From an uncultured virus (IMG/VR IMGVR_UViG_3300027842_000121) (taxonomy: Duplodnaviria; Heunggongvirae; Uroviricota; Caudoviricetes): a stretch of 20,000 bases of DNA. The notes below the pieces were generated by a model. The model was not told the DNA's origin and did not search any database. It worked only from the letters and a program-made list of their open reading frames with translations. The DNA lies in IMG/VR virus record IMGVR_UViG_3300027842_000121; one strand, written 5' to 3'. Shown here piece after piece: positions 1 through 19,226 of this stretch. The translations under genes and the position numbers were made by a program. Position 1 is the stretch's first letter; every line of letters begins with the position of its first letter.

Positions 1-36
1 CTCATGCGCTTCGGTCAGTCGATAATGCTTCTTCAT
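1..36 (-). CDS. 5' end of a gene running off the window edge (MKKHYRLTEAHE...)
   Basis: ATG at 36-34 overlaps the TGA (35-33) of the preceding gene (ATGA coupling); the frame is open to the window edge. Confidence 0.5.
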   Translation of the reverse strand, partial: MKKHYRLTEAHE

Positions 37-386
37 CCTGTCCTCTCGCGCATCTCCTCGCCGTAAGATTCATCTTCCATCTCGGTCGCCTCGTTCTCGA
101 CGGCAAGATTGGTGATAACCAGCTCGATCCGGCAAGTGCGACCATTCTCGCCGGCATTGATCGAAACGCTGGTCACCCTCGCAAACGCGCGCAGGTCGAT
201 CATGTCGCCGACTTCGCAATCGTCGTCGAGTTCCAGCTTTTCAAGGATCTCCTGATCGAAACACAGGCACAGCCCGGAGGGATAGTCGCCGACGCAATCG
301 ATCGGATCAAAGCCCTCTGGCGGGGCAATGATTTCCTCTTTTTCCTCGCGAGTGCGCCGCATATCGACCATCGAAGACCACGCCAT
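33..386 (-). CDS. capsid staple/cement protein, epsilon15 gp10-like
   Basis: The motif order VDM...YPxGL.L..D.E.LEKL.L....VGD.I...A.A.VTSVS......IEL.IT matches my recollection of the epsilon15 gp10 family. The ATG at 386 overlaps the upstream stop, and the gene lies in the head module. Confidence 0.7.
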   Translation of the reverse strand: MAWSSMVDMRRTREEKEEIIAPPEGFDPIDCVGDYPSGLCLCFDQEILEKLELDDDCEVGDMIDLRAFARVTSVSINAGENGRTCRIELVITNLAVENEATEMEDESYGEEMRERTG

Positions 387-973
387 CAAGCCGCCTCCCG
401 CTCCGTACGGCCGCCTTCGCGCACATCCTCGCTCTCGCCGCGGCTCATCTCGCCCTCACCGGGCGTCTCGTGGCCCTCGTGCCTGGCGTGCATCTGCATG
501 CGCTCGTGCTCGTGCCTGACTCGCATCTGATGATGATCGGTGTGGTGGCGATCGTGCATCTGGTGCGTCTCGTGCTCCTGGCGCCGATGCAGATGCACCA
601 AATCCCCTTCAGCGGCCGCCTGATGCTCGCGTTCGTGGCGGTCTTCCATCTGCCGGTGCTCTTTGCGATGCCCCATATGCTGCTCGCGCCGCTCGTTCTC
701 ATGCCGGGCCGACATTTCCATACGCTCGCGCGCCTTCTCGTCACCGCCCTCATGCTCTTCGGCGCGTTCCTCGCTGGGATTGTCGTTCTTTTCGGTACGT
801 TCCTCGCGTGCCTCGCTCCCGGGATTGCCGCGCTCGCGCGCCTCACGGCGGGGCGACTCGCCCTCGCTGCGGTCGCGCCGCGAAGTCGGCCCGCTGTCGC
901 TGCGCTCGGGCTCGGAAGATCCGGGATTATCGCCGTATCGGGTACGGGCACGGTCGCGGGAACTCTCGGCCAT
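386..973 (-). CDS. His/Glu/Arg-rich protein with 11-residue repeats and an N-terminal RYG motif
   Basis: 195 aa, abutting both neighbours. Repeats of the form MxxRHExExxQ (MEDRHEREHQA, MHDRHHTDHHQ, MRVRHEHERMQ). The N-terminus reads SRDRARTRYG. Confidence 0.75.
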   Translation of the reverse strand: MAESSRDRARTRYGDNPGSSEPERSDSGPTSRRDRSEGESPRREARERGNPGSEAREERTEKNDNPSEERAEEHEGGDEKARERMEMSARHENERREQHMGHRKEHRQMEDRHEREHQAAAEGDLVHLHRRQEHETHQMHDRHHTDHHQMRVRHEHERMQMHARHEGHETPGEGEMSRGESEDVREGGRTEREAA

Positions 974-1204
974 CTATCGACCTTTCGGCTTACGAGGATT
1001 GGAATAGCGCTTCTCGGCGCGCGAGCCGCCGTGATGCATGCCTTGCAAGGTCAACGCCAGCCGCGCGCGCTTGCCGGTCGTACCGCTATCGTGCTGATGC
1101 TCGCGGGCAAATTCCATCGGGCTCTCGCCGGCACGCTTCGCCTGCGCGGTGAGACTTCCGGGATTCTTGATCGCCCCCTTGATCCATTTCTTCTTGCCCG
1201 CCAT
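974..1204 (-). CDS. small basic phage protein (KKWIKGAIKNPG...GKRARLALTL) with C-terminal SRAEKRY
   Basis: Start moved to ATG 1204, which has a GAGGAG RBS upstream. The WI..AIK.PG.L / G.RARLA.TL pattern is one I recall from phage head-region proteins. Confidence 0.7.
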   Translation of the reverse strand: MAGKKKWIKGAIKNPGSLTAQAKRAGESPMEFAREHQHDSGTTGKRARLALTLQGMHHGGSRAEKRYSNPRKPKGR

Positions 1205-1208
1205 CCCA

Positions 1209-1442
1209 TTACTCCTCGTCGCCATATCGATCAGGGACAGGGTCGCCATATCGCACCAGCCTCTTCAGTCGCGCAGCATGTTCGCGTTCGTCGGCGCGAT
1301 TGTGCTCGAACGCCTCCTTGGCCGCAGGTGACTTTGCCGCCGCAGCCCGCTTGCCGTAGTCGCGTACCGCCTTGCGCTCCTCAGCGAGCGACTTCCTGAT
1401 CATCGCCTGCGTGCCGCCGTAGCGGCGGTCAGCCGCTGCCAT
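1209..1442 (-). CDS. encapsulated-ferritin (EncFtn/Flp)-like half-ferritin
   Basis: SLAEERKAVRDY...P......HNRADEREHAA gives the EExxAxxxY...HNRxxExEH pattern of the two-helix ferritin-like family. A GGAG RBS precedes ATG 1442. Confidence 0.7.
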   Translation of the reverse strand: MAAADRRYGGTQAMIRKSLAEERKAVRDYGKRAAAAKSPAAKEAFEHNRADEREHAARLKRLVRYGDPVPDRYGDEE

Positions 1443-1617
1443 AGCGTTTCTCCGCCCGGCTCATCGCCCGAAACCTGTTGCACCAATCCTCCGGCTCGAT
1501 CCTGCCGGCGACAACCTCGCAATCGTGCGGCCGCTCGAAATGGCGGCAAATGCCACAATGGTTGGGTCCAGAGGCGGGATGCTCATAATCGACCGAGGCC
1601 TTAGTCGCCTTCGCCAT
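1429..1617 (-). CDS. HiPIP-like 4Fe-4S protein without a Tat signal
   Basis: K..V.Y...P....C-x2-C-x8-C-x12-C with C.VV.G.I.P..WC, the HiPIP signature. Start taken as ATG 1617 (MAKATK). Confidence 0.7.
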   Translation of the reverse strand: MAKATKASVDYEHPASGPNHCGICRHFERPHDCEVVAGRIEPEDWCNRFRAMSRAEKRYGSG

Positions 1618-1789
1618 ACCGCCGCGCCGATCGAGATTTGTTGGCATGCTTGTTCGCCGTGGCGATAGCTTCGCCCTCGGGAACCCGGGCGTTGATCATC
1701 GCCGTCGCCTGCTTTGCCGCCTTCCCGGCCTCGGCAGTCGAGAGCTTCTTATCATGGCGTTCTTTGTACTGGCGGGCCGTCCACGGCAT
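1601..1789 (-). CDS. small protein, possibly ChaB/DUF2188-N-like, with C-terminal SRSARRYG
   Basis: MPWT...L....KA...A.A......EG.AIA.A pattern. The start overlaps the stop of the ligase gene at 1789. Confidence 0.6.
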   Translation of the reverse strand: MPWTARQYKERHDKKLSTAEAGKAAKQATAMINARVPEGEAIATANKHANKSRSARRYGEGD

Positions 1790-1979
1790 CAGGCTTCTCC
1801 AGATCCGCCAATTCCCGCTTCAACAATGCCACATAGCGGCGCAGATGCGGGTCGAACGGGTAAACCGAAACCGCCCGATCGGCTATCTTCTCGATCTCTC
1901 CTTGTGAAAACGGCCGGCCAAAAATCCCATCGATCCGCCACTCGGCGAGGCTCGAGCTTGCCGCGAAGACGCAGCCCAT
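1752..1979 (-). CDS. possible overlapping gene, or alternative-frame C-terminal domain of the ligase
   Basis: This frame reads like real protein (GEIEKIADRAVSVYPFDPHLRRYVALLKRELADLE), whereas the ligase tail over the same bases looks like shadow-frame sequence. The start is uncertain (ATG 1979 or slightly upstream). Confidence 0.4.
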   Translation of the reverse strand: MGCVFAASSSLAEWRIDGIFGRPFSQGEIEKIADRAVSVYPFDPHLRRYVALLKRELADLEKPDAVDGPPVQRTP

Positions 1980-2958
1980 TACGAGCCAGCCGGCTCGCCA
2001 GCACCGCAAACACAAACCCCGATGCAGGGAGTTCGAGCGGAAACGAGAAGACGGCGCAGACGAGTGCTGCGGCAAGCGCACCATTTGTTGCCCCATCCGA
2101 GGCTGGCGTCACGCGTACCCATCGCCGCCATAGCATCGCGCAAATGCCGGCCGCCAGCAGCAACGGAACGGCGCCGATTTCGACCGCCGCCTGCAAAAGA
2201 TCGCTGTGCGCGTATTCCCAACGCGGATAGGTCGCGCCAAACCACCCCAAGCCATGCCCGAAAGGTGCGATCGAGAGTGCGGCAGCCTGCCAGATTTCGA
2301 TGCGGTCGAGGGCGGTAGTGAACTTTTCCGGGCCGAACAGCAGGATGCTCGCCGTCGCAAAGATCCCGGCCAGCACCGCACCTAAAAACTTTGTCATCGG
2401 CGGTGCGCGCCACACCACCAGAAGACCGACCAGAACGGCGAAAAGGGCGACGCGCGACTGGCACAACAACAGGGGGACAGACAGGACCGGAGCCAAGAAC
2501 CAGTCACGGCGCGCCGCCGCCCATAGAAACACCGGGGCGGCGGTTTCGGCCAGCACGTCGCGATTGAAAAACAATCCGGCCGGCACCGAGAATTGCGGAA
2601 TTGCCCCCCAGCCCAGCATCTGCGGCACTACCAGAGCCGCCGAAACGGCAAGACCGGCGGCAATCCAGGTCATAACCACATCAATCGAGGCAAGCTGCGC
2701 TGCCGCAAGAACAGCGAGCGCCAGGATGACGAGGTGAAAGAGCTGGTTGGCGCCCCCGAGCGGGTCGGAAGACCAAACGAGAGTTAGGCCGGCATATCCG
2801 AGAAGAGCGATCGAAGAGCAGAAAAGCGGGATGCCGACCGCGCGCGGATCAAGCCGCGACACAAGCGGGATGCCGAGCGCGAGCAAAGCCCAGCGCGGCA
2901 TCTCCGCATTGATCGTCGGCCAGAAGGCGAGCATTACGAGACATCCGAGAGCAGGCAA
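1789..2958 (-). CDS. O-antigen ligase / O-oligosaccharyltransferase family membrane protein (Wzy_C domain)
   Basis: About 10 or more hydrophobic segments, plus the motifs GLFFNRD, QSRVA, RIEIWQAA, PFGHGLGWF and YAHSDLLQAAVEIG typical of Wzy_C/WaaL/PglL. Confidence 0.8.
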   Translation of the reverse strand: MPALGCLVMLAFWPTINAEMPRWALLALGIPLVSRLDPRAVGIPLFCSSIALLGYAGLTLVWSSDPLGGANQLFHLVILALAVLAAAQLASIDVVMTWIAAGLAVSAALVVPQMLGWGAIPQFSVPAGLFFNRDVLAETAAPVFLWAAARRDWFLAPVLSVPLLLCQSRVALFAVLVGLLVVWRAPPMTKFLGAVLAGIFATASILLFGPEKFTTALDRIEIWQAAALSIAPFGHGLGWFGATYPRWEYAHSDLLQAAVEIGAVPLLLAAGICAMLWRRWVRVTPASDGATNGALAAALVCAVFSFPLELPASGFVFAVLASRLARNGLRLRGKLEPRRVADRWDFWPAVFTRRDREDSRSGGFGLPVRPASAPLCGIVEAGIGGSGEA

Positions 2959-4433: not shown

Positions 4434-4991
4434 TCACGCGACGATGTAATTCGCGGCATAAGCGGCTGCCGCCCAGTCGTCGCGAGCCAAGACGATCGCC
4501 GCCGCCACCGCACCTGCCGAGAAGGTGCTGGTGCCGACGACATAATTGAGCCGGATAAAGCGCGGCATTGCCGCAAGAATGGCGCGATGCGGCCACGCAA
4601 ACCCGATTTTGCCGTATTCCGGCGCTGTCGTCGTCAAGGTCAATTGCGCCACCGTCAGCGCGTCGGTCTCGATATAGGTCGTATAGCCGGCCGCCGTGTT
4701 GCTGCCGCTATCGATCGAGCCCTGGAACTGCACCTGCATCGTGGCCCCACCCGCCGACACGAAGGATGAGGTGATCCACACGCCGACGCGGGGGATGTTG
4801 ACGCCGTCGCCAATACCGAGATCCTCGCCAAAGACGCTGGCGTTCCCGATTCGGTTCAGCGGCGCACTGCCAACGCCGGCCCCCGTCAAATCGATGACGT
4901 TGGTCGATGCGGCAGTCGAGGTGATCGCCTGCCCGGTTGCCGGCGATGCGCCGGGATTCCCCGAGAAAACGAGGTTTTGGTCCATAATCAT
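4434..4991 (-). CDS. Bbp16-family capsid cement protein
   Basis: MIMD..L.FS...QAIT.TA.STNVIDL ... F...G.AT.QV...S ... RFIRLNYVVG..TF.AG.V.A.IV, located immediately downstream of the major capsid gene. Confidence 0.8.
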   Translation of the reverse strand: MIMDQNLVFSGNPGASPATGQAITSTAASTNVIDLTGAGVGSAPLNRIGNASVFGEDLGIGDGVNIPRVGVWITSSFVSAGGATMQVQFQGSIDSGSNTAAGYTTYIETDALTVAQLTLTTTAPEYGKIGFAWPHRAILAAMPRFIRLNYVVGTSTFSAGAVAAAIVLARDDWAAAAYAANYIVA

Positions 4992-5004: not shown

Positions 5005-6054
5005 TCAGGTCACGCGGGTCTCGGTATTGAGCAAAACATCGCAAACGCGGATCGGAATGCCGCGGAAGCTGGTCACCGGCTCGCCCGCGTAGTCGCGCGG
5101 CCCGAGCAGCACGTTGCGATCACGGATGGCCTGAATGTCCATGTATTCGCGCCCGGTACGGTTGACGTAAATCGCCGGACGGATACCGGGTGCGGGCTCA
5201 TCCGGGGCATCGGTCTTGACGATGCCGGATTGGTTGCGCGCCATTTTCGGCAGGCGGACCACCGCCTTCGAGAGCAGCGCAAAGAGGTCGGGCGCATTCG
5301 AGCCGCCAAGGCCGGCAGAGGTCGTGTCGAGGTTGGCAATCCGCACGACATAACGCCAGTCGCGCACGCATAGCCCGGCCTCGTGCCGGAACCATGACGT
5401 GTAGGCTTCGAAGCGGTTGCCGCTCGAATCGTAGCCGGGAACGATATCGCCCTTGTCCTCAAAGACTATGCCGGCCTTGGACCCCTTCGGAAACAACCCG
5501 AAACAGGTTTCCTCGCCCCAGCCGATAAGCCAAAGCGAGGTATTGGAACTGCCGGTCCCGCCGCCGTCGAGGACGTTCTGCGCGTTCTGGGCGTTCGAGG
5601 ATGTGACCGTATTGAAAAGCGGGGCAAAACCGGTAAATTGCGACGGACTGACGGTCGAATTCCCGTAGAAAATCGTCGTCGCCATCTGCTGCGAGAGGCC
5701 TTCCAAAAAGGCGTTGTCCTCGCTGTAGCGGAATTTCGCGACGTTGCCCGACATCTCGGCAAGCTTGCGATCAATCTGGCTGTAAGCTTCGAGCATGCCG
5801 GTGCCGACGGTAACCTGCGCAGTCGTCGATTTGCCGTAGGGGACGCCCTGATAGAGCAATCGCCAGGTGCCGGAAGGGAGCGAGGTGCGCAGGGTCGTCT
5901 TGTGACCCGTCGGCAGGATGCCCTCGATCCAGATCATGTCGTCGTAAATTTCGTTCGCCTGAGAGAGCATCTCGGCGATGTCGTCGATCTGGCCCTGCGG
6001 GTCCATGCGCCGCGCCCAGTCGGCAAGCGTCAGGTACTGTGCGTTAGTGGGCAT
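5005..6054 (-). CDS. major capsid protein, BPP-1 Bbp17 / epsilon15 gp7 type (HK97 fold)
   Basis: 349 aa with LTLADWARRMDP, EMLSQ.NEI, RT.LP..TWR, F.E.LSQ.MA.T.FYG, GL.VRDWRYVVRIAN.D and FRGIPIR..D.LLNTE..V. Confidence 0.92.
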   Translation of the reverse strand: MPTNAQYLTLADWARRMDPQGQIDDIAEMLSQANEIYDDMIWIEGILPTGHKTTLRTSLPSGTWRLLYQGVPYGKSTTAQVTVGTGMLEAYSQIDRKLAEMSGNVAKFRYSEDNAFLEGLSQQMATTIFYGNSTVSPSQFTGFAPLFNTVTSSNAQNAQNVLDGGGTGSSNTSLWLIGWGEETCFGLFPKGSKAGIVFEDKGDIVPGYDSSGNRFEAYTSWFRHEAGLCVRDWRYVVRIANLDTTSAGLGGSNAPDLFALLSKAVVRLPKMARNQSGIVKTDAPDEPAPGIRPAIYVNRTGREYMDIQAIRDRNVLLGPRDYAGEPVTSFRGIPIRVCDVLLNTETRVT

Positions 6055-6877
6055 TGCCGTTCATTCCTTGGGTGTTGATGTAGCGGCGCTCGATACGCGA
6101 GCCGGACTGAGCGCCCGAAATCTGAGGCTGTACACCGTTGACGGGCGGCTGGACGGGGCGCGGCCTGCCTTCCGACAACGCCGCACCGATATTCGACAGA
6201 AAGCGAATGAAGGCAGGATGATCGCCCATCCCGGTATAGTTCAGGGCATCAAGCAGTTCCTGGCGCTGCTGTTGCGCGCGGGCAGGCGGCACGCCTGGAA
6301 TACTGGCAAAACGATCGCGTACCGCAGCGCACAACCGCAAGGTCGTGTCGCGCCGGTTGCCGCCGATGTCGGGATCACTCTCGAAATTCTCGCGCCAGTT
6401 CTCGCGAGTGCGATCGAACGCCTGCTGCTGATGCTGCGTCATGCGCTCGCGCAGCTCGGTCAGGTTGGCGATGTAAAGATCGAGCAGCGCCTGGCCGCGC
6501 TCCTGCGGCGTCATCTCGGGATTGCCGAGAATGCCGGTAAAGGATTCCATCCCGGCGGCGTCAATTTCGACACCATTGGGTAGAGTAAACGGCTCAAATG
6601 CGATCGGAGCAGGAGCTGGGGCCTCTCCCGCGTCGCCGCTTTCAGGCGCTGCCTCACTGACCAGCGATGGCTTTGGCCCCTCGACTGCGGGCGCCTCGGT
6701 AGCCGCCGCTTCTACCGGGGCCTCGGCCGCAACAGGCGCCGCCGGTTCGGCTGGCGTCGGCTCAACCACCGCTACAGGAGGTGGAGCTGCAGGAGCCGGC
6801 GCCGTCACCTCCGCCGGAGCCGACGCAGGCGGAGGAGCCTCGGCGGCAACCGTTACCGGGGCCGTTTCTTCAGCCAT
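6044..6877 (-). CDS. capsid scaffolding protein
   Basis: Ala/Pro/Glu-rich disordered N-terminus, then F.LP.G.E.D, a helical core (W......DPDIGG) and LN.TGMGDHP..IRF...IG..L.EG. It lies immediately upstream of the capsid gene. Confidence 0.8.
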   Translation of the reverse strand: MAEETAPVTVAAEAPPPASAPAEVTAPAPAAPPPVAVVEPTPAEPAAPVAAEAPVEAAATEAPAVEGPKPSLVSEAAPESGDAGEAPAPAPIAFEPFTLPNGVEIDAAGMESFTGILGNPEMTPQERGQALLDLYIANLTELRERMTQHQQQAFDRTRENWRENFESDPDIGGNRRDTTLRLCAAVRDRFASIPGVPPARAQQQRQELLDALNYTGMGDHPAFIRFLSNIGAALSEGRPRPVQPPVNGVQPQISGAQSGSRIERRYINTQGMNGNAH

Positions 6878-8079: not shown

Positions 8080-8137
8080 ATTGAGCGATGAACTCCGATA
8101 ATCTCCCCGTGCGGATCGCCTCCGCCAGAGTAAGCAT
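8060..8137 (-). pseudogene. 25-aa ORF (MLTLAEAIRTGRLSEFIAQ...), probably a 3'-truncated small gene
   Basis: The ATG overlaps the upstream TGA. The protein-like sequence ends at about 8080, exactly where TROVE similarity begins in another frame. Confidence 0.45.
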
Positions 8138-8910
8138 CACGCCGCCTCTAAAAGCTGAATGAAGGTCCGATCTGGCGCGGTCATCGGCACAAGCTTAGTG
8201 GCGGAACTGGAAACTAGACTATAGAAATCTCCCAAATCCTCACGAGACTTGATGACACCAAATCTATCGGGAGGCGACTCCACCATTGCAAAATCGCTAA
8301 ACTTTGCGTAGGCGCCAACTGCGCTGATGTAGACACCTGAAATCGGCTCGAAGAATGCAGGCCGATGCACTTTGTCAAGCACCGCAACGGAAACACGCCA
8401 TTTGTGGCGCGCCCCCGAAAACTCGGGGTCTTTCTGGACGTCTCGCGTCTTATACAGAGCCGATAACCGCTGATATAGGTCGTCCCTTGCGTCCCGATCG
8501 GACCGTTCGGCCAAGCGCAACGCGGCAGCATGGGTTGCTCTGGCTGAGCAATTGGCTACGGTCACCATCGCGCCTCGGACGCGCTCTATCGGCACTTCGG
8601 CGATAAATATGTCGCGGCCATCAAACCGGATGGCCGCGAGTTCAGCAATCCGCTGGGCCTCCGCTCGGTAATAGCGAAGCGCTCCGAACAGCTCCGCTTC
8701 TTGATACCCGCCCCCGCGGTCGGAGACGAAACAGCGCGCCCTTCGCGCCACCACTTCTAGCACGACGCTCGCGCCGCTCGGGTAAATCACTGGCAGCCTG
8801 ACAATCGATCCGGCCTGAAAATGATCAACCTGCGTCATTCGACGCACGGCGTCATCTAGGCTGCGCCGCAGCGCTTCGCTGGGTGGTGCCTGGCTTAGGA
8901 GGCTAAGCAT
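8137..8910 (-). CDS. DUF1828-like protein with a possible C-terminal nuclease-like (DUF1829-like) region
   Basis: P..YPSG..V...V......VSD.G.G..E N-terminal pattern and F.GA.HKW C-terminal pattern. Codon usage is lower in GC than the phage core genes. Confidence 0.55.
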   Translation of the reverse strand: MLSLLSQAPPSEALRRSLDDAVRRMTQVDHFQAGSIVRLPVIYPSGASVVLEVVARRARCFVSDRGGGYQEAELFGALRYYRAEAQRIAELAAIRFDGRDIFIAEVPIERVRGAMVTVANCSARATHAAALRLAERSDRDARDDLYQRLSALYKTRDVQKDPEFSGARHKWRVSVAVLDKVHRPAFFEPISGVYISAVGAYAKFSDFAMVESPPDRFGVIKSREDLGDFYSLVSSSATKLVPMTAPDRTFIQLLEAA

Positions 8911-14735: not shown

Positions 14736-15194
14736 TCAGGCCTGCGCCGTCGCAACATCCTCTTTCGGGCTGCGCCCGGCACGCTCGTTCCAGCCCGCCA
14801 TCCAGCCCTGCTGCCACTCCTCACGCTCCACAGTCGTTGGCACATAGGGGTTGCTCGACGCCGGATCGCCATTCATCGCCGCTCGATGCCCGGCATCATA
14901 TTCCAGGCGGGCGGACGGCTTGCGCTTCTTCGGAAGCTTCATCCGCAGCATCGCCGCCTCACCCAAGGGCGTGTCGGCCAGCATCCCAAGCTCTCGCCGG
15001 TAGCCGTCCATGGCCGCCTCTTCTGCAGCCACCGTGTCCACATCCCGCTTGCGCTCGCGGATCAGCCGGCGCAGCAGCTTCGGGTCGAAGCCGTAGGCCT
15101 TCGCCTCGATGTAAACTTCCTTGATGTCTTCGACGATCCCGGCCCGATCGCCCTCCAACAGCTCGATGCGATCGACGATCGCTTTCAGATCCAT
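14736..15194 (-). CDS. GapR (DUF2312) DNA-binding domain fused to an Rmf/CrpP-like C-terminal domain
   Basis: LKAIVDRIELLE.....I.EDIKEVY.EAK..GFDPK.LR.LIR.RK........E.....Y...LGM is the DUF2312 pattern. The tail YDAGH.A...G.....NPY.......W..GW resembles Rmf. Confidence 0.8.
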   Translation of the reverse strand: MDLKAIVDRIELLEGDRAGIVEDIKEVYIEAKAYGFDPKLLRRLIRERKRDVDTVAAEEAAMDGYRRELGMLADTPLGEAAMLRMKLPKKRKPSARLEYDAGHRAAMNGDPASSNPYVPTTVEREEWQQGWMAGWNERAGRSPKEDVATAQA

Positions 15195-15469
15195 CACCGC
15201 CCCCTAAACTCTTCGGCATGAGCCGAACAATAGGGACGGCTGCCGATGAATACGGTCGGCCGTTCCTGACAATCCCCACGCGCACAAATAAGCTGCATCG
15301 ACGATGGTGTGTACCTGAAGCCACCTATAACACCTTTGGACGGCCTATCTTTACTTATCGCATCTACAGACAGTGGCGGACGCGCCATCTTCGCCAGATA
15401 TTCGCCTATTTTACTCAACTTCTCGTCAATTCCGCGCAAAACCATCAGGATTTCGTCGGTTTTGTCCAT
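15194..15469 (-). CDS. hypothetical protein with a C-terminal Cys/His cluster
   Basis: ATG 15469 with a GGGAGG RBS; contains CARGDC...YCSAH, a possible zinc site. Confidence 0.6.
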   Translation of the reverse strand: MDKTDEILMVLRGIDEKLSKIGEYLAKMARPPLSVDAISKDRPSKGVIGGFRYTPSSMQLICARGDCQERPTVFIGSRPYCSAHAEEFRGR

Positions 15470-18971: not shown

Positions 18972-19016
18972 GTCACTCCCGCATCACCGTCGCTTACCTT
19001 ATACCCCAGAACCGTA

Positions 19017-19049
19017 AAATTTTCCCGGAAATTTTGGGGCTGAAATTTT
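19017..19049. repeat. three AAATTTT tracts (19017, 19029, 19043)
   Basis: Directly visible and conspicuous in a high-GC sequence. Confidence 0.7.
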
Positions 19050-19198
19050 CGGGCGATTCGTGAAGGGGTGTATAGCATTCGCGGGCACCCGGTATGCCCC
19101 CCAAGTCGGTTTGCCGAGGCGCCGTCTCGGCATCGGCCGCCAACAACCAGCGATCACAACCTTAACTTGTGTTCCTATAACGTTCGTTGTGCGATGCA

Positions 19199-19226
19199 AC
19201 TTTCCATAATAAGCCTTATACGACAT
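19199..19226 (-). other. dif-like XerC/XerD recombination site
   Basis: The minus strand reads ATGTCGTATAA-GGCTTA-TTATGGAAAGT: an 11-6-11 architecture with the inner ATAA/TTAT inverted repeat. The TTATGGAA arm resembles rhizobial dif sites as I recall them. Confidence 0.6.

Follow-up and report, generated by a model that had tools for sequence, protein, structure and literature searches.

An EncFtn-like half-ferritin bearing a scaffold-type tyrosine motif in the head operon of an epsilon15/BPP-1-like phage: a possible case of cargo loading

What is a ferritin of the kind enclosed by encapsulins doing among the head genes of a phage? The question is raised by a 20,000-nucleotide stretch of DNA (here called the window) from an uncultured virus (IMG/VR record IMGVR_UViG_3300027842_000121), in which a preliminary description, made from the sequence alone, had pointed out a small ORF resembling encapsulated ferritin (EncFtn) and carrying R-Y-G tags at both ends. 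Encapsulins are thought to descend from phage capsids, and the preliminary description saw in the locus a possible evolutionary link between the two. Is the ORF a true member of the EncFtn-like family? If so, is it an encapsulin cargo? And what might a short tyrosine motif be doing on it and on its neighbors?

An EncFtn-like half-ferritin and its relatives

1209..1442, minus strand: EncFtn-like half-ferritin ORF, 77 aa, ATG start, helices predicted at residues 3-35 and 39-65

The ATG of this ORF has a ribosome-binding site, GGAG, 8-11 nt on its 5' side, and its GC3 of 0.72 compares with 0.68-0.79 in neighboring genes. The 40-residue stretch originally recognized as an EncFtn core corresponds to residues 18-57, and the gap-free alignment claimed for it can be carried further: residues 18-68 align without gaps, at 41% identity (BLASTP, E 8e-11), to the EncFtn of a classical encapsulin operon (L064). 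A comparison of EncFtn with rubrerythrin-type profiles, which the preliminary description had proposed as a check, came out in favor of the former: the Pfam EncFtn-like profile PF22277 matches with 35.2 bits (cut-off 27, E 1.1e-8), above its gathering score, while the Rubrerythrin and Ferritin profiles also match but more weakly. The NCBIfam profiles EncB_fam and TIGR04535 match at E values of about 1e-12, with scores under their respective cut-offs (48.1 bits vs 90, and 47.7 vs 125). Among PDB sequences the best match is NE0167 of Nitrosomonas europaea (3k6c, E 2.2e-6), with EncB and EncFtn entries after it; NE0167, a structural genomics entry that is best by fold as well as by sequence, is uncharacterized, and no phage context or tag is known for it.

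An AlphaFold2 model built on a 22-row alignment is a two-helix hairpin (pLDDT 86) with loose ends. All Foldseek matches listed for it are chains of the EncFtn family, with TM scores of 0.70-0.74 and E values of only about 1e-2, weak because the fold is so small. Residues were mapped to R. rubrum Rru_A0973 by an offset of +10, together with the titles of PDB variants (E31A/E32A/E34A/E62A/H65A), giving the equivalences E21=E31, E22=E32, K24=E34, Y29=Y39, E52=E62 and H55=H65. Following the EncFtn literature, we take Glu32, Glu62 and His65 to be the ferroxidase ligands, with Tyr39 nearby, and Glu34 and Trp38 to form the entry site. E22, Y29, E52 and H55 are invariant across 22 aligned relatives, bearing out the earlier remark that the ferroxidase Glu, the Tyr and the ExxH are retained. 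The entry-site positions of Glu34 and Trp38 are occupied by K24 and D28, the first of these being the Lys that had been noticed in place of one entry-site Glu. The 77-aa ORF is a real two-helix half-ferritin of the EncFtn-like family with its ferroxidase ligands kept. We infer ferroxidase activity and oligomer state from the sequence: two chains would pair, forming a di-iron ferroxidase center from E22, E52 and H55 with Y29 beside it.

The EncFtn proteins of Family 1 encapsulins (R. rubrum Rru_A0973, 5da5; H. ochraceum, 5n5f; M. xanthus EncB/EncC, 7s5c/7s8t) have the same two-helix fold, and about 50 residues align to them ungapped, with the Glu and Glu-x-x-His ligands and the Tyr kept. The differences lie in profile score (35 bits vs 132 for the L064 protein on PF22277), in the Lys and Asp that replace Glu34 and Trp38, and in setting: the half-ferritin belongs to a phage late operon, without Linocin_M18 or a tail of the L064 type. 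No Linocin_M18 encapsulin gene was found among the 32 window proteins scanned, whereas in L064, which served as the control, the EncFtn gene is followed by a Linocin_M18 gene (E 1.1e-57). Compared by eye, the half-ferritin tail, R-Y-G-D-P-V-P-D-R-Y-G-D-E-E, lacks an encapsulin targeting peptide of the L064 type, in which the EncFtn ends in a G-I-G-S-L-R-type tail.

Close relatives are few. HMMER over 1.84 billion representatives returned 46 half-ferritin matches at E<=1e-3, the sole close homologue among them being P0002 (66% identity, 76 aa), for which no locus was found in IMG/VR. A word-index protein search with the half-ferritin returned nothing but itself, and tblastn of GenBank phages gave no match for it or for the neighboring HiPIP-like protein described below; of two contig scans, one was empty and the other found only the classical encapsulin operon L064, which was taken as a contrast. 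In a protein atlas, the nearest cluster is most often assigned to Uroviricota, among its few members of known phylum, and short half-ferritins also occur in phage contexts at L006, L007 and L017. Other candidates fell away: L002 and L003 were dropped, the tail having matched an SbcD-like protein by chance, and L011-L021 were set aside as full-length bacterial ferritin-domain proteins (L012, L020 and L021 were scanned; the others are of similar length).

A tree built from 43 domain rows (49 columns), of limited resolution and with P0018, P0029, P0030 and P0034 dropped, unites six classical-type EncFtn rows and one other in a clade (support 96/88), and pairs the half-ferritin with P0002 in the other group, across a branch supported at 93/84. 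The phylogeny that had been suggested as a check thus places it outside the clade of classical EncFtn, on a branch, separate from the classical cargo of encapsulins, whose half-ferritins are short and either stand alone or are fused. Because there is no encapsulin gene and no targeting peptide, the scores are below the NCBIfam cut-offs and the tree branch is a separate one, the half-ferritin is not a classical encapsulin cargo.

In P0004, P0009, P0011, P0020, P0037 and P0047, all from other genomes, the half-ferritin domain is joined to small modules, including an S-x-A-Q-R-type N-module and E-R-x-E-H-rich tails, that are separate tagged proteins here or in relatives; the fusions suggest that these modules work together.

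The late operon and its variable slot

The first 15,875 bases of the window are identical to a virus record of 34,979 bases, the protein cluster of the half-ferritin lists a contig of 65,351 bases, and related IMG/VR contigs measure 62-64 kb; the source is an epsilon15/BPP-1-like phage of about 65 kb. The genes run, all on the minus strand, in the order small and large terminase, a GapR-RMF fusion, T7-type portal, an 851-aa protein, the scaffold-position protein, GP7-type capsid, a Bbp16-like protein, two unknowns, a Wzy_C-like membrane protein, five small ORFs and a gp10 homologue. The half-ferritin is one of the five small ORFs before the gp10 homologue, and its placement inside a terminase/portal/capsid operon, asserted at the outset, is confirmed by this gene order. 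The features that matter for the argument are these:

18999..19226, minus strand: ORF between the two terminase genes, 75 aa, C-terminal K-F-Y-G (-S-G-V end) at 19011-19019
6044..6877, minus strand: scaffold-position protein, 277 aa, tail E-R-R-Y-I at 6077-6091, just upstream of the capsid gene
5005..6054, minus strand: major capsid protein of epsilon15 gp7 / BPP-1 type, putative docking partner of the tag
4434..4991, minus strand: Bbp16-like cement protein, upstream edge of the variable small-gene slot
1601..1789, minus strand: small protein, 62 aa, C-terminal R-R-Y-G at 1613-1621, tblastn homologues in 7 related loci
1429..1647, minus strand: HiPIP-like protein of PioC/Iro type, 72 aa, C-terminal K-R-Y-G at 1438-1446, alternative start at 1617
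974..1249, minus strand: small protein phrog_20603, 91 aa, C-terminal K-R-Y-S variant at 1001-1009
386..973, minus strand: His/Glu/Arg-rich protein, 195 aa, N-terminal T-R-Y-G at 932-940
33..389, minus strand: epsilon15 gp10 homologue (Pfam PF21628; 3j40_N), weak S-Y-G in the tail at 60-68

Directly upstream of the half-ferritin gene, and overlapping it, is the gene of the HiPIP-like protein, in which four cluster-binding Cys are spaced C-x2-C-x8-C-x12-C. It matches PioC (6xyv) in the PDB at E 9.3e-6 with all four Cys aligned, and the NCBIfam Iro profile NF041615 at E 1.3e-13 (51 bits vs an equivalog cut-off of 100). PioC and Iro are small HiPIPs linked to Fe(II) oxidation; the phage protein shares all four Cys but falls below the equivalog cut-off, has no evident export signal and carries the phage tag. 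Two further HiPIP-like ORFs were recognized by profile, in L058 and L051. A search of the literature on HiPIPs and bacteriophages listed no title on a phage-encoded HiPIP.

The 195-aa protein has repeated M-H-x-R-H-like motifs and may bind metal; shorter counterparts with these motifs and an N-terminal tag can be seen by eye at the equivalent place in many relatives, none of them found by tblastn. At 14736-15197 (minus strand), just upstream of the portal gene, a GapR-like DNA-binding domain and a ribosome modulation factor domain are fused in one ORF. At 1789-2958 (minus strand), a 389-aa multi-pass membrane protein stands within the structural operon; it has a sub-threshold match to Wzy_C (O-antigen ligase/polymerase), occurs in only 3 related loci, and may be a surface-conversion gene.

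The small genes overlap or abut. On the coding strand no promoter-like site was found, no terminator-like site separates one small gene from the next, and GC content does not break anywhere in the cluster; a classical moron signature, with its own promoter, terminator or GC shift, was rejected. Relatives were compared by tblastn across 38 loci, L023-L060 (the capsid protein had led to 37 of them, and L023 was added). The capsid protein was detected in 37 of these, the scaffold-position protein in 35, Bbp16 in 34 and a gp10-like protein in 26; the 91-aa protein was detected in 10, the 62-aa protein in 7 and the HiPIP in one, and the half-ferritin in none of the 37 related phage loci. Different small proteins fill the slot between the cement and gp10 genes in related phages. 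These patchy counts mark the slot as hypervariable and the half-ferritin within it as an accessory gene.

A terminal tyrosine motif

In the half-ferritin itself, the R-Y-G tags noticed at both ends prove to be three:

1416..1424, minus strand: N-terminal R7-Y8-G9, Q-R-Y-G in P0002
1245..1253, minus strand: first C-terminal R64-Y65-G66, where TATGGC contains the ATG of the next gene
1221..1229, minus strand: second C-terminal R72-Y73-G74, in the second copy of a 12-nt repeat

They are not alone. Each of six consecutive small proteins has a terminal [R/K]-x-R-Y-G-type motif or a close variant, and the six terminal [RWFL]YG occurrences in these proteins compare with 0.09 expected (Poisson P ~7e-10). 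In the window and 38 loci together, [RWFL]YG occurs within the last 15 residues of 34 out of 414 distinct small plus-strand ORFs; about 2.6 would be expected from a background of 53 in 109,332 interior positions. The motif is non-random and tag-like, as first supposed. It occurs at either end of a protein and at varying distance from the terminus; the portal in this window has no tag. The 18999..19226 ORF, outside the main cluster, is possibly a further bearer, judging by its C-terminal K-F-Y-G.

Could the motif be a by-product of gene junctions? Three R-Y-G codon sets in the window contain the ATG of the next gene, and the tail of the half-ferritin is itself affected: the last 13 of its residues overlap the N-terminus of the 91-aa gene, a 41-nt dual-coding stretch (1209-1249) that encodes the tail in one frame and a conserved N-terminus in another, and an exact 12-nt direct repeat occupies 1218-1229 and 1242-1253. 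R64-Y65-G66, moreover, aligns with the R-R-H of the 'RRHDP' segment of classical EncFtn. Part of the half-ferritin tail could be a by-product of overlapping genes. As a general explanation, however, a junction artifact was rejected, because relatives start the next gene elsewhere, low-GC phages keep the peptide and scaffold tails lie far from any start; the caveat is kept for those last 13 residues. The low-GC relatives retain the peptide as K-L-Y-G, so it is a feature of the peptide and not of the DNA.

The bearer that may explain the others is the 277-aa protein. Its model starts with a disordered, Ala/Pro-rich segment, continues as a core that is helical throughout and closes with a short helix in the tail; it has no significant fold match and no protease fold. 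Its homologues are labelled 'protease' in PHROGs, RefSeq and GenBank, an identity that neither Pfam, which found no protease family among the window proteins, nor the fold supports. From its position and its all-helical model, it is probably the scaffold. Only 7 columns are invariant in 21 scaffold homologues, whose columns average 31% identity, and Tyr266 is one of them; the Tyr motif ends all 36 scaffold-position proteins listed, each directly upstream of its own capsid gene.

By the residue that precedes the Tyr, the tails can be sorted into three classes (R, L/M and W/F), and the class of the scaffold is that of the small proteins in 23 of the 24 loci that have both (the exception is L059; 14 rows are without one or the other), or in 17 of 18 when identical scaffolds are counted once. 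The HiPIP-like proteins follow suit, with K-R-Y-G here, D-W-Y-G in L058 and G-W-Y-G in L051, each fitting the scaffold class of its own phage. The classes follow three phage clades, and therefore at most about three independent changes lie behind this co-variation. Capsid residues that track the flavor of the tag were sought as well: 4 columns split off the R class and 50 of 358 the W class, which reflects clade divergence and is no contact map. A complex prediction for the capsid protein (25-row alignment) and the half-ferritin, run without controls, scored 0.00 and counts neither way.

In the cultured phage phiV10 (L061/L063) the terminal motif is found in only 2 of 54 CDS, the scaffold-position protein (5553-6248) and the gp10 homologue (8135-8458), whose tails agree in 7 of 8 residues, and in Caulobacter phage SR18 (L062) the tails of the same two proteins are paired as in phiV10. 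The gp10-like protein of the present window has only S-Y-G in its tail; in relatives the tail has R-F-Y-G, K-L-Y or Q-R-Y. The 111-aa gp10 of epsilon15 was detected by virion proteomics (PMC9207676, section 11) and misfits the outer-shell density once assigned to it, a 130-aa protein fitting better (PMC9207676); it is thus a virion protein that has been displaced from its former place.

In a different phage, L023, at 5598-6627, a HiPIP-like protein and two small neighbors are encoded upstream of the portal gene, and their tails are of an A-x-A-F-basic type without the Tyr; these may be another flavor of tag, or chance.

Cargo loading and the alternatives

A peptide common to the scaffold, to a virion protein and to a changing set of small proteins is most simply accounted for by a single docking site on the capsid protein. 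On this reading the tag would be an address label: the peptide (a basic residue followed by R, L/M or W, a Y and usually a G) would dock on the capsid protein or the interior of the procapsid, and the tagged small proteins, by mimicking the scaffold tail, would be co-assembled into the head. We give an even chance of being right to the proposal that the half-ferritin, the HiPIP and the His-rich protein are loaded into the head in this way. Together the half-ferritin, the PioC/Iro-like HiPIP and the His-rich protein could form an iron-oxidizing and iron-binding cargo, which might shield the DNA inside the head against Fe(II)/peroxide chemistry or pass into the host. The domain identity, the conserved ligands, the shared and co-varying motif and the setting within the operon are observed; the binding of tag to capsid, the packaging and the physiological role are surmised. 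More tentative is the wider generalization that the epsilon15/BPP-1 group has a natural cargo-loading system, in which the scaffold's Tyr tail, placed on any small protein, would have it built into the head, here with a ferroxidase/HiPIP/His-rich set, the capsid being a working counterpart of a ferritin-loaded encapsulin. Several observations count against loading of cargo: the occurrence of the half-ferritin in 0 of 37 loci and its single close homologue, P0002; the R-Y-G that lies in overlapping genes and the one at the R-R-H position; the S-Y-G of the gp10 tail and the tagless portal; K24 and D28 at the entry site; and the 'protease' labels of the scaffold homologues.

What else could the genes and the motif be for? 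The half-ferritin, the HiPIP and their neighbors might be soluble accessory proteins that deal with iron or oxidative stress in the infected or lysogenic cell and never enter the particle, the motif serving some other end. The hypervariable slot, from which the half-ferritin is missing in all 37 related loci, would suit such a role, as would the Wzy_C-like membrane protein, typical of conversion genes, in the same slot; phages are also known to carry stress enzymes of the ferritin superfamily, Dps-like proteins and Mn-catalases (bioRxiv 10.1101/2020.10.07.330464). Against this account, the genes are coupled within the late operon and have no promoter, terminator or GC break of their own, and the account leaves unexplained why unrelated small proteins share the invariant tail motif of the scaffold and follow its flavor; we consider it unlikely. 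An assembly-control or processing signal is a further candidate: the motif could be a head-protease site, or the small proteins could time the release of the scaffold by competing with its tail, and stay outside the finished head. The annotation of scaffold-position homologues as proteases is in keeping with the former, and the motif shared by scaffold and gp10 homologue, which could compete for one site, with the latter. Against both stand the all-helical 277-aa model with no protease fold match, the lack of a protease family in the window, and the placement of the motif at either end and at variable distance from the terminus, and this explanation appears improbable.

Descent was the reading offered initially: that the locus stands midway in evolution between phage capsids and encapsulins loaded with ferritin. 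An EncFtn-like domain does lie beside an HK97-fold capsid gene, and published models discuss exchange between procapsids and encapsulins (PMC13669383). The capsid protein, however, is of the epsilon15 gp7/BPP-1 type, the half-ferritin gene is sporadic among relatives and falls outside the classical EncFtn clade, and the tag resembles the scaffold tail and not the targeting peptide of L064. The proposed link by descent was not upheld and is very improbable; the likeness to encapsulins is best read, from these comparisons, as a functional analogy and not as an evolutionary intermediate. That the ORF is a decayed or chance reading frame without function is scarcely credible: it is short, it overlaps both neighbors, and in this GC-rich DNA the antisense frames are open too, but its family match is above threshold, its catalytic residues are invariant, P0002 is a 66%-identical homologue of like length, and its ribosome-binding site and codon-position GC are like those of its neighbors.

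Loading of cargo by a terminal peptide would have parallels. The targeting sequence of the T4 internal proteins, the C-terminal tail of the HK97 protease and the C-terminus of the P22 scaffold are phage capsid-targeting peptides. As there, a short terminal peptide is found here on unrelated head-module proteins and on a probable internal assembly protein, and the bearers are hypervariable. The peptide here differs in sequence and belongs to another phage group; it is mostly C-terminal but also N-terminal, with no cleavage indicated, its bearers include redox and iron proteins, and packaging is in this case a prediction. The cargo-loading peptides of encapsulins are the same in concept, labels at one end of an enzyme that dock it within a shell of the HK97 fold (as the phage tag presumably would). 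They have no likeness to the phage tag in sequence, and in the phage the shell is a capsid that packages a genome, with its portal, terminase and scaffold.

Ferritin-superfamily genes of phages are already in print, in the form of Dps-like proteins and Mn-catalases in 'Gratiaviridae' and Lactobacillus phages, and a ferritin-like protein has been detected in particles of phage G. Like the half-ferritin these are phage-borne di-iron-carboxylate proteins, and phage G shows that presence in the particle is possible; unlike it, they belong to full four-helix-bundle families, with no address tag and no EncFtn half-ferritin type described in the accessible parts of those reports. Nothing found in the literature searched describes a phage head module with an EncFtn-type protein. 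A 2026 paper speculates that viral procapsids might co-assemble cargo-like proteins and, in the part available, gives no example (PMC13669383); another concerns a prophage capsid protein and, in its accessible part, has no bearing on the half-ferritin (PMC11518796).

The locus offers a concrete, testable case, in which an encapsulin-type enzyme, a simple peptide label and a scaffold tail with the same label occur together. If the label works, it would explain why a widespread group of phages has a hypervariable block of small genes, would give the displaced gp10 of epsilon15 a location, and would provide a short natural tag with which proteins could be loaded into phage heads.

The Tyr tail may not be the only capsid-related motif among the small proteins. 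At its N-terminus the 91-aa family is similar to the capsid N-arm of the same phage, and changes with it (L024, L053, L054): in L053 the 91-aa protein has L-T-L-A-D-M-A-R-R-M-V-P and the capsid protein T-L-A-D-V-G-R-R-M-D-P, and in L024 the corresponding sequences are T-L-T-D-L-A-S-R-T and T-L-V-D-L-A-R-R-T. This likeness may be a second capsid-related motif.
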